Below, one piece after another: positions 469-12,546 of a DNA stretch of 64,000 nt. The stretch is from IMG/VR virus record IMGVR_UViG_3300037493_002747, positions 11,761 to 75,760 of that record; one strand, 5' to 3'. Position 1 is the first letter of the stretch; the number at the start of each line of letters is the position of its first letter. This stretch comes from a virus. Under the pieces are notes generated by a model. That model ran no database searches and was not told where the DNA came from. It was given only the letters and a program-made list of their open reading frames with translations. The position numbers and the translations under genes are program-made.

Positions 469-525
469 AAAAGACTAACCGTATTCTGGACAGATTTTAG
501 CAATGTATGGATGGAGGGCACAACA

Positions 526-4541: not shown

Positions 4542-4922
4542 ATGAGTCAGACCAAAGCGCAGCGCAAGAAACAACAAAAGTCGAAGTCGCGTGAGAAGCA
4601 GATCAAGAAAAACAGGAACATTCTGCGGAATGTTGCTGTAAAGAGATTCCGTCTTGATGTGCATATGGGGGATGATTGGAAGATTGGAGTACGACAGTGG
4701 TCCAATATTCAGCAGGTAGAAGCTCATAGAGTAGAAACTGAAGCTCGTCGTGCCAAGGGCGAGGAGATTCTGATGGGTCGGGTGGTTGATATGGCCATTG
4801 GCAATGGCAAGGTGATCTTGAACATTCCTGGAGCAACGCCAAAGCCAAAGGGTATGGCACCTGACAAGATCGCAGATGGTGCAAAGGCTTGGGATTGTGA
4901 GTACGATTCTGGCACCAAGTAA
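4542..4922 (+). CDS. hypothetical basic protein
   Basis: 126-aa ORF with GGGAG RBS. Confidence 0.75.
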   Translation: MSQTKAQRKKQQKSKSREKQIKKNRNILRNVAVKRFRLDVHMGDDWKIGVRQWSNIQQVEAHRVETEARRAKGEEILMGRVVDMAIGNGKVILNIPGATPKPKGMAPDKIADGAKAWDCEYDSGTK

Positions 4923-4978
4923 GAAACTCTGAAAATTTCTCCGTATTTTGCAGGGCGGTTGGCAATGTATGGATGTGC

Positions 4979-5196
4979 GGATGTTCTACTGAGGATTCGG
5001 GCGTTGTTATAGCAAACCGAGTCATTGGTTTAGCGGCCAACAAGACAGGGGCGTAAGGCGACAACGAAAAGTGGTTTAGCGGCCTCTCCCGAGTCTTCAG
5101 TAGAGCATCTGAGTGTGAGGCGATAAAGTGGGTTCAATTCCCATCAGTAGTAGGGTCAGCCCGAACCTGGGACGGTATGGATCGTGGCTTTACATG
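4979..5196 (+). ncRNA. structured ncRNA candidate with a 23-bp closing stem and a tRNA-like T-arm
   Basis: GGATGTTCTACTGAGGATTCGGG (4979-5001) pairs with CCCGAGTCTTCAGTAGAGCATCT (5088-5110) using only WC and GU pairs; duplicated GGTTTAGCGGCC; T-arm GTGGG-TTCAATT-CCCAT at 5128-5144. Confidence 0.55.
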
Positions 5197-5207
5197 TTCT
5201 TTGACAA
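5195..5207 (+). promoter_or_regulatory. boxA-like antitermination element TGTTCTTTGACAA
   Basis: Close to rrn boxA (TGCTCTTTAACA); lies directly before the rRNA-mimic RNA; similar TGTTCTTTGA at 6368 before the tmRNA. Confidence 0.5.
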
Positions 5208-5210
5208 TTT

Positions 5211-5567
5211 GAGACGAGTGATGGGTGGTAGGCTCAGAAGCAGCCATCCATAAAAAGTGAGTCGCTGAGTTCTAATCCGTGAGAGCCGCTGGAAAAGTGG
5301 CTAGTCGGATAGGCGAACAGAGATTGGGTAGGCGGGACGGGACCCGATGTCAGGACTTGTAGTGTTGTAGTCTAAAGCTGTAGATTTTTACGGCATAAAG
5401 TCTACTGTAGCTCAGTCTTGAGTGTACTGCTCTGTTGTGCGGCGTTAGAAGGTTGCGGCTTCCATGGAAGATGTAGAAAGTTCGTGTGGTTGACTTAGTA
5501 TCTTCCAAGGCCAAACTCAACTGCATGGTGGACTCTTTGGCGTAATAGCAAACCCATCACAAGTCTT
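5211..5567 (+). ncRNA. ncRNA mimicking the 23S rRNA uL11-binding/GTPase-associated centre (H42-H44), with a ~280-nt insertion
   Basis: H43-like TGGTAGGC-TCAGAAGCA-GCCATCCA-TAAAAAG (5226-5257) and H44-like GC-GTAATA-GC (5540-5549), closed by GTGATGGG/CCCATCAC; the insertion is closed by GAGTC/GACTC. Confidence 0.75.
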
Positions 5568-5571
5568 TTCT

Positions 5572-6260
5572 GGGATCAGTCGTGGAGCTAAGAATGTTAA
5601 AAACATTTGGACTAAGAAGCGACTCAAGTCATGGCTATGAAAGTGGGCCATGAGATTCCAGCGGACCATCAGCGAGCCGAATTACGCTGGGATGAAGCGA
5701 GTTGCAAAAGCGGCAAGCGGATTCCGAATAGAGTCGGTGGGATCGAGATCTGATTGGATTCGGTGGGTTCCTGTTCTGATTAGAGTAGTCTGATTAGATT
5801 CGGTGGGTTCCTGTTCTGATTAGAAGATCATCCCGTAAACTTGTGGTCCGGTCTTTTTTGAATCTCGTGATAACAGAAGTTAAATCTCCTGTAGTATGCC
5901 AAGTTGTATAGGTATAGGAGATTCTTATGCGGCAAGACGGTTTCTAAGCCCGTCTACGAGCATTTTTGTAGCATTGTGTGCAAACCCGACAGGAGAGGCA
6001 CACGACAAGCGCAGATAGAAAAGGCCGCTCATGGCTCGTGAATAGGGAAGAGAGAGGTCGTAGGGTGTACAACCGAAAACCCAATCTTGTCTAGCTTAGA
6101 TGGTGGAGGGTGACGGGGAAACCTGTCGCCCCTGACTCGAAAGGGCGTTCGTGGAAATCGAACTAGACCTGTGATGGCGACCGTAGCACCACAGAGACGA
6201 GTAGCAGGTCGAAATAAACGTGGATCGGTGACAGTCGGGAGAGTACCGACAACTTTTTTG
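5572..6260 (+). ncRNA. large (~680 nt) highly structured ncRNA candidate (GOLLD/ROOL size class, family unassigned)
   Basis: No credible ORF; nested long-range stems (5649-5658/5860-5869 and 5662-5668/5844-5850); many hairpins; ends in a hairpin plus U-tract. Confidence 0.55.
5749..5824 (+). repeat. tandem duplication of a 36-nt hairpin unit (40-nt period)
   Basis: TCTGATT(G/A)GATTCGGTGGGTTCCTGTTCTGATTAGA at 5749-5784 and 5789-5824, one mismatch. Confidence 0.9.
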
Positions 6261-6382
6261 TTAGGTTTTGCTGTCTGTGGGTATAATGACTCATGGAGAA
6301 AAGAAGTGTGTGATGATTTTTCTTCCGTATTTGACACGGAGTGTGGCAATGTAGTGTCAGATTTGATTGTTCTTTGATATAT

Positions 6383-6794
6383 GGGGACGAGTGGTTTCGA
6401 CGAGTGTTATTGAAACTGGTCGACATGCCGAGGACACAGGTGGGCCTCGTAAATCATCCTGTAAAAAAACAACTGCCAACACTTTTGGCAAGGTGATTCG
6501 TGGTTTCTTTGGAGTGGCTGCTGAGGCTACTCCGATGCTTGCCGCTGCCTAAACAGGCACACCTCCAAAACTCCGGAGTTTCTATGACAACCGGATGAGG
6601 ATCAAAGAGAATAGATGACGGTCTGCAAAGACAGGCGATGCCGGGAATGAGACGCACCGGGGCGGATAGTCGAAGACATCCCTGAAAGAAGGGATAGACC
6701 AAGTCCGTGGTCGAGAAACATCGTGACGAAGCATGTGTATGTTCAGTTGATTTATTATTCGGACAGGGGGTTCGACTCCCCCTCGTCTCCACCA
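6383..6794 (+). ncRNA. ssrA: tmRNA; tag ANTFGKVIRGFFGVAAEATPMLAAA encoded at 6475-6552
   Basis: 5' GGGGACG and 3' CGTCTCC-ACCA form an acceptor stem with G3-U; TTCGAC near the 5' end; T-arm GGGGG-TTCGACT-CCCCC; tag frame ends LAAA-stop. Confidence 0.95.
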
Positions 6795-6828
6795 TTTTCA
6801 GAGATAATGAGGAAAGTTTGAAAAAGTG

Positions 6829-6858
6829 TTGAAAACTTACTCGTTGTCGGAGTATAGT
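6829..6858 (+). promoter_or_regulatory. sigma70-like promoter (TTGAAA-18-TATAGT)
   Basis: Near-consensus hexamers just upstream of the first Y-RNA candidate. Confidence 0.45.
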
Positions 6859-6872
6859 GATTTGTGAACGAA

Positions 6873-6954
6873 GTCAGGCTCCTTCAGGACTGGGTTACTT
6901 CATTACAAAAGCGAAAAAATCTCGGCGGTCTATGAGGACCGAAATTGAGATGAC
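6873..6954 (+). ncRNA. candidate Y RNA (Ro60-associated), copy 1
   Basis: Shares the CCTTCAG..GGGTTACTTC..GAAAAA core and a bulged-stem fold with 7082-7146; near the Ro60 gene. Confidence 0.45.
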
Positions 6955-7081
6955 GATCTGCAAAGACAGAGTGGAATTCCGGGAAGACGGAATGGAGGCG
7001 TGGGAAGACACGCAAATGACAGCTCGGAAAGACGGCTTACCTAGGACGAATATCGGAGTTTGATGGAGTTCTTGAGTTTTT

Positions 7082-7146
7082 GCTTGATACCTTCAGTTTG
7101 GGGTTACTTCTTGGTGAAAAACCCCCAAACGATTATTGGTGTCGGC
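7082..7146 (+). ncRNA. candidate Y RNA (Ro60-associated), copy 2
   Basis: GATACC/GGTGTC stem, TTCA internal loop, GTTTGGGG/CCCCAAAC stem and a TTACTTC-containing apex; upstream of Ro60. Confidence 0.5.
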
Positions 7147-7154
7147 TATATTAT

Positions 7155-7231
7155 TGCGGGGTAGAGCAGCCCGGTAGCTTATCAGGCTCATAACCTGAAG
7201 GTCGCTGGTTCAAATCCAGCCCCCGCAACCA
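7155..7231 (+). tRNA. tRNA-Met(CAT), initiator-like
   Basis: 77-nt cloverleaf close to bacterial tRNA-fMet; anticodon loop CTCATAA; encoded CCA. Confidence 0.95.
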
Positions 7232-7236
7232 ATAAA

Positions 7237-7274
7237 GGCCGGACATCAATAAAAGGATGTTCGGCTTTTTCTTT
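7237..7274 (+). terminator. Rho-independent terminator after the tRNA
   Basis: GGCCGGACATC/GATGTTCGGCT stem followed by TTTTCTTT. Confidence 0.7.
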
Positions 7275-7380
7275 GTATCGAATCGTGTAGGTTCAATGTT
7301 CTGTGTGGAACATTGGGAATAAGGGTGCCGAAAGGCACAAAATTGGTGGTAGAGATATCACCTTCAAGGAGGTAAGAGAA

Positions 7381-9135
7381 GTGAATAAGGTAAAGAAGGT
7401 CGCAAGGAGTAGGGCTTCGGTAGCAAGTCTGCCGAGCAACGCAAAGGCCGCATCGGTAAACCGGGCGGGCGGAGTGGCATTCGAGGTAAATGATCCGGCA
7501 TTGAAGTTGATCACCATGACTGGTGGGTCTTTCTTCGCCGAGCCGAGGTTCTATAACGCAGAGGCATGTGTACCTAAGCGTGGGACTGGCGGTAAGTTCG
7601 AGAAGCTGGCAGCGAGGCTAGAGATCGTGGATGGCAAGCTGAAGGGCTTTGTCACCTGTGATGAGCTTCCTGAGACGGCTCGTGAGGTTATCGCAACGGC
7701 TATCGATGTCGCCAAGGGTAAGACCCCGGAGGACATGCTGGCAATCGCCAACTGGCTTCGTAATGAGATGAACATCCGGATGACCCCGCAGATTTTGCTG
7801 GTGTTGGCATCTCAGATGGATGGGACTAAGTCACTGGTTCGGAAGTATGCGACTCACATCGTGAAGCGTCCGGATGAGGTTAAGACCTGTCTGTTGACTC
7901 ATCGTTTTCTGTTCGGGCTGAAGAATCTCCCGAATGGCCTAGCGAGTGGATTGGCTGATGCTACGAGTAAGTTCGGTGAGCGTGGGTTGATGAAGTACGA
8001 CGACTCTGGCTTTCCGACTTGGAAGGACGTTCTTTGCTGGCTTCCGCGTAAGGCTGGATGGCCGCTGAGTGCTGAGGTCGCCAAGTATTTCATCACCGGC
8101 AAGATTGATGACCCGGCTAAGACTCCGATCATCGCGGCTCGTAAGGAGTTGGTGAAGAAGACTGTGTTCGATACCGAGGCTCGTGACCTGGCAAAGAAGT
8201 CCCAAGTCAACTGGGAGGTCTTGCTGTCTCAGTTCGGTAAGGAGAAGAACAAGGTGTGGTCGTTTCTGATCGACAACGGTCTGATTGGCTACATGGCTCT
8301 GCTCCGTAATCTGAAGAACATCTTGGAGGCGAAGGTTTCCAAGGGTGTCATTCAGAAGGTATCGGATAAGCTCTCGAACAAGGACGAGGTTGCCAAGTCA
8401 AAGCAGCTTCCGTTCAGGTTCCTGTCGGCAAAGACGGTATTGGATACTATGTCTAGTGGTTTCGATCTTGCGGACTACTCGGAGGTCGTGGCGGCTATTG
8501 AGTTGGCGGCAAATGAGGCATGTGCCAATATCCCGGTAATGTCGGGTGAGACCATGGTGTTTGCAGACAATTCTGGTTCGATGACGAGTGCAAAATTGTC
8601 GGAGAAGTCGGCACGGAACTGTCGTGATGCTGCAAATATGCTGTCTGGTATCGCCGCCAAGGTATGTGAGAGGCCGTACCTGTTCGCATTTGGATCGAGT
8701 CTTCAGGAGATTCGTTTTGCCAAGACGGATACCGTAATGGGTATCTGTGACAAGGTAAAGCGATCAGGGGACGGTGGTTCTACGAATGGTCACCTGTGCA
8801 TTGAGCATTTGATCAAGTCTGGGAAGACTCCGGCACGGGTTATCATCCTGACGGACTGTCAGATGTGGAATGATAACAGTAACGGTGGTGGTCAGCCGTT
8901 TGCGAATGCATGGGCGAAGTACCGGAAGTCAAGTAAGGCTGCGGCGGAGACTTGGCTTCATATCGTTCACCTTTCGGGATACGGGGATAGTCCAGTGGAT
9001 GTGGGAGAGAGGGTGAATCAGGTCTCTGGGTTCTCAGAGAAGGTATTCACATCGATCCTCACTGTCGAGGGAGTTATGGGATCTACTCCACTCCCTACGG
9101 TGGAGCAGGTAAGGAATGGGTGGACGGTGAAATAG
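7381..9135 (+). CDS. Ro60/Rsr-like RNA-binding protein (TROVE + vWA domains)
   Basis: NxAGG.AF, GYMALLRNL, KQLPFRFLSA, MIDAS DNSGSM and IILTD motifs; RBS AAGGAGGT at 7366-7373 before GTG. Confidence 0.9.
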   Translation: MNKVKKVARSRASVASLPSNAKAASVNRAGGVAFEVNDPALKLITMTGGSFFAEPRFYNAEACVPKRGTGGKFEKLAARLEIVDGKLKGFVTCDELPETAREVIATAIDVAKGKTPEDMLAIANWLRNEMNIRMTPQILLVLASQMDGTKSLVRKYATHIVKRPDEVKTCLLTHRFLFGLKNLPNGLASGLADATSKFGERGLMKYDDSGFPTWKDVLCWLPRKAGWPLSAEVAKYFITGKIDDPAKTPIIAARKELVKKTVFDTEARDLAKKSQVNWEVLLSQFGKEKNKVWSFLIDNGLIGYMALLRNLKNILEAKVSKGVIQKVSDKLSNKDEVAKSKQLPFRFLSAKTVLDTMSSGFDLADYSEVVAAIELAANEACANIPVMSGETMVFADNSGSMTSAKLSEKSARNCRDAANMLSGIAAKVCERPYLFAFGSSLQEIRFAKTDTVMGICDKVKRSGDGGSTNGHLCIEHLIKSGKTPARVIILTDCQMWNDNSNGGGQPFANAWAKYRKSSKAAAETWLHIVHLSGYGDSPVDVGERVNQVSGFSEKVFTSILTVEGVMGSTPLPTVEQVRNGWTVK

Positions 9136-9155
9136 TGGCCTAGAAAGGCTATTTG

Positions 9156-9193
9156 GAGGGGGTGGTGTCGAAAGGCATTGCCCCCTCTTTTTT
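9156..9193 (+). terminator. Rho-independent terminator
   Basis: GAGGGGGTGGTGTC-GAAA-GGCATTGCCCCCTC followed by T6. Confidence 0.85.
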
Positions 9194-11498: not shown

Positions 11499-11794
11499 TC
11501 TTCCCGTTTCAGTGTCAAAAATGTAGTAAGAGTTTTGATGAGGAGTTCCCGATAGGTAAAGCACCTCGCGTGACTCCTTGTCCTCATTGCAAGGGTAATG
11601 GCAAACGCATTTACGATGGAATGTGCGTTGCTGTTAAAATTGGAGGGGCATTTTGTCATTCGTCAACCTTTGGCGAACAGATGAAGGCCCGGAATATGCA
11701 GGCAGCGCAACGGATGAAGGGGCGTAAGGCCCCGGTACGACTAGCCGCAATGGATCATGGCGGTGGTGACGTACGTGAGGTGAAAGCAAAGTGA
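11495..11794 (+). CDS. FmdB-family zinc-ribbon protein
   Basis: F.CQKC...F.......CPHC pattern. Confidence 0.75.
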
Positions 11795-12546
11795 TGATAT
11801 GGACGGCAAGCAAAACCTTCTTTCGAGATTTGACAGGGCATCATTACGGGATGCTTGCCGTCCTGTCTTTACATAGCAAGGTGGGTAATTTCAGAAAGTG
11901 GAATTGCCGATGTGATTGTGGAACGGAATGCGTTAAGTATGGACATCAGATTCGGGCCGGACAAGTAGTATCCTGTGGTTGTGAACAGAAAAGAAAAGCG
12001 AAAGAGACCGGCAATAATAATGCGGTTGATTTAACAGGCAGGAGATTTGGAAGGCTTGTTGTTATTGGAAGGAGTGGGAGTAATAAGCATCAGAAGGCAA
12101 GATGGAAGTGTAAATGTGATTGTGGTAAGGAGAAGTTGCTTGTTGCTGGATCATTGATTTCTGGAAATTCAGAGTCTTGCGGTTGTATTCAGAAAGAGAC
12201 GATGCACGAGATTCGATGGAATCCAAATCTTTCACAGGAAGATCGAGAGACGAATCGAAATCGAGAGATTACCATCCCTGGACTCCATCTATGGCGTAAG
12301 GCGGTTTACGAACGGGACGGGTATCGGTGTGTCGTTTGTGGTGGAAGTAAGAGTGGTCGTTTTGTTGCTCATCACATTGCCTCTTGGGCTGCGAATAAAG
12401 ATGTGCGGTTAGATGTAGAGAATGGGGTTACATCATGTGTTGATTGTCACAAGGAATTCCATTCGAGATATGGTTGGGGCGGAAACACTCTCGGACAATG
12501 GTCCGAGTTTTTGACTATAAAAAGTCGGATCGGAATCGCAGTATGA
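11791..12546 (+). CDS. free-standing HNH homing endonuclease with duplicated DLTG..FG.L DNA-binding repeats
   Basis: Two DLTG...W.C.CDCG...SCGC units, then CVVC..HH....NGVTSCVDCH. Confidence 0.85.
   Translation: MMIWTASKTFFRDLTGHHYGMLAVLSLHSKVGNFRKWNCRCDCGTECVKYGHQIRAGQVVSCGCEQKRKAKETGNNNAVDLTGRRFGRLVVIGRSGSNKHQKARWKCKCDCGKEKLLVAGSLISGNSESCGCIQKETMHEIRWNPNLSQEDRETNRNREITIPGLHLWRKAVYERDGYRCVVCGGSKSGRFVAHHIASWAANKDVRLDVENGVTSCVDCHKEFHSRYGWGGNTLGQWSEFLTIKSRIGIAV

Follow-up and report, generated by a model that had tools for sequence, protein, structure and literature searches.

We analysed a 64,000-nt stretch of DNA from an uncultured phage (the window; IMG/VR record IMGVR_UViG_3300037493_002747, positions 11,761–75,760), in which a cluster of structured RNAs lies directly upstream of a gene for the protein Ro60. 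All coordinates are window positions, and labels such as L001 and L002 denote related or compared loci. The source contig is 75.8 kb long with a CheckV completeness of 23%, which implies that the phage genome is probably well over 200 kb and of jumbo class. Genes for a tail fibre, a DnaB-like helicase and a UvsX-like protein identify it as a tailed phage, and nearly all genes of the window are held by the plus strand. Between the end of a conserved open reading frame (ORF) at 4922 and the start of Ro60 at 7303 lies the RNA island, a stretch of 2.38 kb (4923–7302) in which the longest plus-strand ORF has 68 aa and the minus-strand ORFs either overlap a transfer-messenger RNA (tmRNA) gene or have a reading frame that is not kept open in relatives. 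The initial annotation, made from the sequence alone, had described about 2.3 kb without a credible ORF, packed with co-oriented structured RNAs, and both points were borne out: the tmRNA, a tRNA-Met, a mimic of the GTPase-associated centre (GAC) of 23S ribosomal RNA (rRNA) and two Y-type RNAs are all encoded on the plus strand (Table 1). Rfam searches of the whole window at gathering scores and of the island at E ≤ 10 matched only the tmRNA and the tRNA, and GOLLD, ROOL, 5S, LSU, YrlA and twister gave no match in the same scans. Megablast of the island against GenBank phages likewise found no match.

Table 1. Features of the RNA island, the Ro60 gene and associated signals in window coordinates
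Feature	Position	Strand	Description and evidence
Promoter-like motif, further copy	479–507		Just before ORF 511–1416
Phage-specific promoter-like motif	4941–4969	+	CCGTATT-N14-GCAATGTA; head of island; conserved in L001 and L002
Structured RNA	4978–5190	+	Closing helix of about 24 bp (4978–5111) around twin GGUUUAGCGGCC hairpins, then T-arm-like hairpin at about 5128–5146
boxA-like element 1	5195–5210	+	TGTTCTTTGACAATTT; before GAC mimic; 14/16 identical to E. coli rrnH leader boxA
23S GAC mimic	5211–5569	+	rrn comparison, segment comparison, family flank test
GAC mimic, outer helix	5211–5215 with 5565–5569	+	Covaries
GAC mimic, H42-like closing helix	5218–5226 with 5553–5561	+	Covarying
GAC mimic, H43 copy	5227–5250	+	Followed by junction 5251–5258
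GAC mimic, inserted domain	5259–5535	+	About 275 nt, structured
GAC mimic, H44-like hexaloop hairpin	5536–5552	+	GC-GUAAUA-GC
Structured, mostly lineage-specific spacer	5570–5860	+	Tandem hairpin duplication at about 5745–5825; end helix then U-tract at about 5838–5860
Twister-P5 relic and conserved block	5920–6055	+	3′ core, homologous to relatives' ribozyme; alignment A8
Conserved structured element with intrinsic terminator	6100–6260	+	Terminator 6234–6250 plus T run; alignment A3, terminator scan
Sigma70-like site	6258–6287	+	Ahead of tmRNA
Promoter-like motif, second island copy	6325–6353	+	Ahead of tmRNA
boxA-like element 2	6368–6379	+	TGTTCTTTGATA; ends 4 nt before tmRNA 5′ end
tmRNA	6383–6794	+	Rfam RF00023, 117 bits; ARAGORN; 25-residue tag ending LAAA
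Y-type RNA 1	6873–7064	+	Same frame as Y-type RNA 2; hairpins bearing GGAAGAC/GAAAGAC loops make up an insert of about 135 nt
Y-type RNA 2	7084–7148	+	Minimal frame P1-CUUCAG-P2-GGUUACUUC-loop-P2′-CGAUUAUUGG-P1′; ends 6 nt before tRNA
Initiator-type tRNA-Met(CAT)	7155–7231	+	Rfam, ARAGORN, E. coli comparison
Hairpin with T-rich tail	7234–7269	+	Between tRNA and Ro60; weak terminator or processing hairpin; terminator scan
Ro60/TROVE gene, 610 aa	7303–9135	+	Pfam TROVE, vWA_Ro60; PHROG 850; PDB 9KOP/9L5Y
Strong intrinsic terminator	9155–9188	+	15-pair stem, 8 G–C pairs, then T run

The protein-coding end of the cluster is well defined. The ORF that directly follows the RNAs had been called a Ro60/TROVE gene, and this was confirmed by Pfam matches to TROVE (PF05731, 77.4 bits) and vWA_Ro60 (PF25045, 32.5 bits), by a MIDAS motif DxSxS (D422, S424 and S426) that is invariant among six phage homologues and by its relationship to the solved Ro60 of Thermus phage phiLo (PDB 9KOP, E = 1.5e-10). 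The ORF also matches PHROG 850 (RNA-binding protein), and its clade is <30% identical to any cultured-phage Ro60. The strong terminator reported downstream of the gene is present as well. No RNA repair, nuclease, defence or anti-defence gene is recognisable adjoining Ro60; an ORF with an HNH endonuclease domain lies at 11791–12546, 2.6 kb downstream of Ro60.

Upstream of Ro60, two RNAs share a frame whose order is P1, CUUCAG, P2, GGUUACUUC, a variable region, P2′, CG-N-UUAUUGG (CGAUUAUUGG) and P1′, and the boxed motifs are common to many relatives just upstream of tRNA-Met. A simple pattern for the frame found 41 copies. When 16 short copies were aligned, the two helices were paired in 93.8% of cells, versus 37–51% with the partners slid, compensatory changes were present in 10 of 13 pairs and the UACUUC box was invariant (16/16). 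A covariance model built from this alignment (R1) has 56 matches in Ro60 loci totalling 394 kb; every one is on the Ro60 strand, and they often form tandem arrays of 2–4. In phage loci selected for the GAC mimic (917 kb), the model has a single match, and the sister locus of that match has a distant Ro60. Y-type RNA 2 scores 65.1 bits with the model (E = 2e-13). For Y-type RNA 1, which has a fold z-score of −4.0, RNAalifold on four lineages gave 39 pairs, 8 of them with compensatory changes; its insert resembles part of the pseudoknot region of the phage tmRNA, with 6951–7035 matching the interior of the L001 tmRNA. The candidate Y RNAs of the initial annotation are thus real, conserved and covarying RNAs at 6873–7064 and 7084–7148, with a putative Ro60 partnership.

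Known partners of Ro60 (Rsr) include YrlA and YrlB in Salmonella and Mycobacterium, Yrn1 in Deinococcus and Yrl1 and Yrl2 in Thermus phage phiLo (PMC4201824, PMC12135203), and bacterial YrlA has a GNCGAAN0-1G box near its 5′ end (PMC4201824). As in these systems, the RNAs of the window are small, lie directly upstream of Ro60 on the same strand and occur in several copies per locus, and the frame follows the same plan of a stem, an internal loop, a second stem and a variable second module. The frame differs from YrlA in having invariant CUUCAG, UACUUC and CG...GG boxes in place of GNCGAAG, and the window copies differ from known Y RNAs in that Y-type RNA 2 is without the second module and Y-type RNA 1 carries a tmRNA-related hairpin array rather than a tRNA mimic. 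Some relatives' copies do have YrlA T and D arms: the frames of L037, L059 and L056 enclose sub-threshold Rfam YrlA matches (40.5, 33.1 and 28 bits, respectively), with the UACUUC box at the position of the YrlA consensus GGCGAAUG stretch. Because a YrlA-like tRNA module is found in these members of the frame, we read the two RNAs, by context and architecture, as a candidate new Y RNA subclass that would bind Ro60.

Alternatively, the framed RNAs at 6873–7148 may be no partners of Ro60 and instead serve the initiator tRNA or the Ro60 mRNA as a leader or processing element, such as a cis-regulatory 5′ untranslated region. The 6-nt gap between Y-type RNA 2 and the tRNA, the 22 loci in which tRNA-Met follows directly and the absence of the canonical Ro60-binding box GNCGAAG are all consistent with this idea. 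We nevertheless consider it quite improbable, given that the frame, often in 2–4 tandem copies, lies directly upstream of Ro60 with no tRNA in L006, L032, L037, L043 and L060, that some copies contain the YrlA T and D arms and that phage tRNA arrays without Ro60 almost never contain the frame.

At the other end of the island, the rRNA mimic claimed in the initial annotation was identified as a copy of the GAC, which comprises helices 42–44 (H42–H44) of 23S rRNA (E. coli 1051–1108). A blastn search with 4960–5660 against E. coli genomes gave no match because the similarity is too short, and a local short-word BLAST against one E. coli rrn operon did find H43 and the boxA described below. The best match of this second search aligns 5228–5255 with 23S positions 1059–1086 (helix 43; 23/28 identical). 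Within it, the 15-nt loop region of H43 differs from 23S at one base and retains the U1060–U1078 mismatch, and both strands of the three lowest stem pairs differ in compensatory fashion; 5231–5245 fits the H43 loop pattern GGCUNAGAAGCAGCC, and the stem and an A-rich junction strand are present as well. The H44 hexaloop GCGTAATAGC follows about 275 nt downstream of H43, at 5540, with G–C closing pairs as in 23S and the closing strand within 3–4 nt, and its context CUUUGGCGUAAUAGCA is common to the window and 34 other phage copies. The two ends are joined by an H42-like closing helix in which GUGAUGGGU pairs with ACCCAUCAC in the window (−12.5 kcal/mol), GUGAUGG with CCAUCAC in L001 and GCAGGGG with CCUUUGC in L002. 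Across 56 distinct family copies this flank helix has a mean of −8.6 kcal/mol, versus −2.7 ± 0.24 kcal/mol with permuted partners, and 0 of 200 permutations reached the true value.

The structure given here is based on manual segment comparison and the family-wide flank test. An alignment of the whole GAC domain from three phages with MAFFT and RNAalifold was discarded; it misaligned L002 and paired the strands of H43 and H44 differently. No copy of the sarcin–ricin loop was found in the window insert at ≤3 mismatches, and other short rRNA matches had E values of 15–41, for which we claim no mimicry. One of them, the segment 6175–6187 (GGCGACCGTAGC), invariant in the window, L001 and L004, is identical to the 5′ end of 5S rRNA at 12 of 13 positions; its match to the E. 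coli operon (E = 41) is not significant.

The GAC mimic is far from unique to this phage. IMG/VR contains at least 119 exact matches to the H43-loop 16-mer, and none of the matches listed is a real 23S gene, because ≤65 nt around any match aligns to 23S. The 5′ and 3′ consensus blocks of the window are shared by at least 34 other distinct copies, in which inserts separate the two blocks and give spans of 39–370 nt; the window copy spans 319 nt versus a family median of 173 nt. In L149 (minus strand, at about 2100) and L077 (3710–3775) there is essentially no insert, and the mimics are contiguous copies of the 58-nt uL11-binding domain. When 16 mimic loci were scanned with Rfam, only tRNAs and one tmRNA were detected, with the mimics occupying gaps in the tRNA arrays, and neither in these loci nor in the window does any Rfam family match at the mimic position. 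Unannotated mimics are also carried by cultured phages, including pf16, GAP32, XacN1, CBB, Serratia phage BF, Erwinia jumbo phages and Yersinia fHe-Yen9-04; the pf16 copy (L181, 2446–2698) lies between tRNA-Asn and tRNA-Pro, and the GAP32 copy is at 2482–2774 of L180. One tRNA array (L134) contains two GAC mimics about 320 nt apart (5138–5153 and 5456–5471) with a tRNA between them. Our literature searches found no paper describing a phage GAC or rRNA mimic. The window copy is a long-insert member of this large, widespread and unannotated phage RNA family. It differs from 23S in the structured insert of about 275 nt that interrupts H44 and accounts for its long span, and from most of the family in standing free beside Ro60 rather than within a tRNA array.

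Autoregulatory leaders of ribosomal-protein operons mimic rRNA sites as a rule, and the mimic could in principle be such a cis-acting, ribosomal-protein-binding leader or else a decaying fragment of captured host 23S rRNA. The match does cover only the H43 and H44 loops. Both possibilities are highly improbable, however, as the loops have been kept and the stems changed in compensatory fashion across at least 56 distinct family members, and most copies are situated between tRNA genes. A search of five related phage contigs revealed neither an L11 nor an L12 gene, and no listed IMG/VR copy is flanked by further 23S sequence.

Between the GAC mimic and the Y-type RNAs, the tmRNA call was verified by both Rfam and ARAGORN: the RF00023 match is full-length (model positions 1–374), includes the tRNA-like domain and scores 117 bits versus a gathering threshold of 47. 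The tmRNA tags of relatives end in LAA or AAA. No SmpB gene was found on the 75.8-kb contig, which covers only about 23% of the genome, or on five related contigs, and the SmpB partner is presumed to be that of the host. The tRNA-fMet proposed downstream was also upheld as an initiator-type tRNA-Met, on the strength of its CAT anticodon and 89.5% identity to an E. coli tRNA-Met gene of which genomes carry a median of 4 copies; we take the four-copy E. coli tRNA-Met genes to be the initiator genes. Its anticodon stem has two G–C pairs and A29–U41 (some relatives have all three G–C pairs), A11:U24 is present as read from the sequence, and position 1:72 is a weak U1–A72 pair, where most relatives have a U1×U72 mismatch. 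At L038 (1319–1389), a sub-threshold match to the hepatitis delta virus-like ribozyme (31 bits, E = 0.06) begins exactly at the 3′ end of the tRNA-Met and may be a 3′-processing ribozyme.

Two kinds of signal recur across the island. The promoter-like motif has three copies in the window (479, 4941 and 6325), versus 0.03 expected by chance. The second kind comprises the boxA-like sites that the initial annotation had noted before two of the RNAs; these are indeed present, and the exact 10-mer TGTTCTTTGA occurs in the 64 kb only at 5195 and 6368. A boxA in the same placement before the tmRNA is found in L001, L002, L013, L022 and L052. Across Ro60 loci, GTTCTTTGA[ACT]A occurs 38 times on the plus (Ro60) strand versus once on the minus strand, and it typically lies 14–25 nt ahead of a tmRNA or Y-type RNA; in the window the GAC mimic likewise has one at this distance. 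Among 80 usable instances of the 15-mer TGTTCTTTGAAAACT in bacterial genomes, 29 lie 50–320 nt ahead of the 5′ end of a 16S or 23S gene on the same strand. In an unrelated phage (L124, minus strand, about 1100–1134), a boxA-like GTTCTTTGACAATTTG is situated 32 nt before a GAC mimic, one of two such cases among the 119 sites listed.

The window elements thus resemble the boxA of rrn leaders and spacers both in sequence (14/16 to E. coli, with the same core as the boxA before 16S and 23S in many bacteria) and in being placed between a promoter or promoter-like motif and a long untranslated structured RNA. They differ in being phage-borne, in lying 14–25 nt before each RNA and in being repeated before individual small RNA genes. 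From these similarities we infer an rrn-style antitermination of long untranslated transcripts. Literature searches for the boxA sequence returned nothing relevant, and as far as could be found, boxA use at phage stable-RNA genes has no earlier description.

The rest of the island is more variable. The structured RNA at its head (4978–5190) has a fold z-score of −4.9 and no Rfam match; the wider segment 4961–5649 is 77% identical in L001, and only blocks of it are retained in L002. In the spacer that follows the GAC mimic (5570–5860; fold z-score −3.8), conservation is found only at 5572–5650 and only in L001. The tandem duplication within this spacer, of a hairpin of about 36 nt, is specific to this phage. 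Further downstream, the islands of relatives contain Twister-P5 ribozymes (RF02684) at 2263–2351 of L001 (48.6 bits) and 3448–3524 of L002 (38 bits), which could process their transcript. Searched at E ≤ 10, the contig of the window itself yields no Twister-P5 match, and the relic at 5920–5990 keeps only the 3′ core, with the cleavage-site UAAU strand changed to UUAU. In alignment A3, which covers the conserved element ahead of the tmRNA signals, the hairpins covary among the window, L001 and L004; an nhmmer search with the A3 profile recovered only its own source sequences (E = 2.5e-59 and 7e-52) and no further homologue. The initial annotation had listed a large noncoding RNA, which would correspond to about 5570–6260. 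This stretch does fold better than shuffled sequences (z-scores of −3.8 and −2.4), but it is a mosaic and not one RNA, because conserved blocks alternate with lineage-specific sequence and a U-tract lies in the middle; it also contains the degenerate twister relic.

The initial annotation treated these parts as one block and made their co-conservation in relatives a test of it. We examined 44 distinct related Ro60 loci whose upstream sequence extends for at least 400 nt, counting tmRNA in the 21 with at least 2.5 kb upstream. Model R1 matched a Y-type RNA in 30 of the 44 loci, with a shortened variant visible by eye in several others; tRNA-Met(CAT) was present within 1.5 kb upstream in 22 of 44; and tmRNA was found 0.8–5.4 kb upstream of Ro60 in 10 of 21, sometimes with ORFs between. 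The GAC mimic occurs near Ro60 only in three lineages (the window, L001 and L002), and Ro60 is near the mimic in 1 of the 118 other phage mimic loci listed. The test is thus passed only in part, and co-conservation is graded: tight for the Y RNAs and Ro60, frequent for tRNA-fMet and tmRNA, and rare for the GAC mimic near Ro60. This pattern of co-occurrence indicates that the block is a cluster of separable modules and not one obligate unit.

The same pattern bears on the proposal that the whole block is one integrated counter-defence system, in which the RNAs would serve jointly as decoys for host toxins, or as repair factors, where these toxins cleave or modify tRNA and rRNA or bring ribosomes to a halt. 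All of the parts have to do with translation or RNA surveillance; they share their orientation, promoter type and boxA signals, and several lineages repeat the order tmRNA, tRNA-Met, Ro60. Some toxins modify the GAC or other structured RNAs; ADP-ribosyltransferase toxins, for instance, act on helix 44 of 23S rRNA. Set against this, linkage of the GAC mimic to Ro60 is almost never seen outside three close lineages, the distance to tmRNA is variable with ORFs between, tmRNA is missing from the upstream flank in half of the loci with enough flank and no defence or anti-defence gene is recognisable nearby. We regard an integrated system as unlikely, and offer a decoy or counter-defence role of the RNAs as a hypothesis.

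Blocks of tmRNA, tRNA and Ro60 are known in Bxz1-type phages. The window resembles such blocks of large phages in carrying all three together; it differs in having only one tRNA, the initiator, and in holding its RNAs, a GAC mimic among them, within a single 2.4-kb region that is free of ORFs and equipped with boxA signals. The initial annotation did not recognise the combination as a described unit, which holds for this particular combination but not for phage Ro60 with Y RNAs, which has already been described (PMC4201824, PMC12135203). What is new here is the candidate Y RNA subclass, the boxA usage and the GAC mimic placed in such company.

Taking these observations together, we put at roughly 60% the probability that the region represents a cluster of stable-RNA genes in a large phage, resembling two rRNA-operon-like transcription units, the products of which are separable modules. 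This reading builds on the observed parts and on their conservation, covariation and linkage statistics, to which we add the transcription units, antitermination, processing and all binding partners as elements that we infer. Phage-specific promoters at 4941 and 6325 would start long untranslated transcripts, and boxA in the nascent RNA (5195 and 6368) would recruit the host NusB/NusE antitermination machinery. The antiterminated polymerase would then resist Rho, pass the internal hairpin–U sites and reach the strong terminator at 9188, and RNase P, RNase Z and other host nucleases would release the individual RNAs.

Once released, the ends of the GAC-mimic RNA would rebuild helices 42–44 of 23S rRNA, presumably presenting this site off the ribosome. 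In the ribosome, the site binds uL11 and thiostrepton and meets the translation GTPases. The tmRNA would rescue stalled ribosomes with host SmpB and add a phage-specified degradation tag, while the island would supply an extra initiator tRNA. The two Y-type RNAs would bind the phage Ro60 made from the same transcript, and the hairpin array that the longer one shares with tmRNA may tether Ro60 to a host factor.

Several points weigh against a cluster of this kind. The hairpin at 7234–7269 could stop most transcripts ahead of Ro60. The boxA-like motif is unusually near the RNA 5′ ends (14–25 nt) and could be a processing signal or a site for another protein. The GAC mimic has its insert of about 275 nt within H44 and may not adopt the GAC tertiary fold. 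YrlA (RF02553) has no match in the contig at E ≤ 10, and the Y-type RNAs of the window have neither the GNCGAAG box nor a tRNA-like module. Lastly, the transcription units, read-through and processing sites are all predicted from motifs.

A bolder version of the stable-RNA cluster, which we hold only tentatively and think rather doubtful, is that the island acts as a 'mini rRNA operon'. Here one antiterminated operon of imitations and spares of the translation machinery would sustain translation, or soak up toxins, when host ribosomes and tRNAs are attacked by the host itself in the course of infection. Besides a free copy of the GAC, the set would include a tmRNA and an initiator tRNA, along with a Ro60 particle in which the Y RNA has a protein-binding hairpin array in common with the tmRNA, and the Y-type RNAs would embody a new Ro60-recognition code (CUUCAG/UACUUC) as opposed to the GNCGAAG of YrlA.

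The locus is a compact natural test bed for the role that Ro60–Y RNA particles play for phages. The putative new Y RNA subclass, with its 56 copies, covariation and different boxes, makes Ro60 recognition testable by simple binding assays. The presence of a GAC mimic beside Ro60 and tmRNA, under the same signals, bears on the purpose of the widespread phage copy of the uL11- and GTPase-binding site. Finally, the strand-specific boxA of rrn type suggests that phages may borrow the host machinery for rRNA antitermination and folding to make long untranslated RNA arrays.

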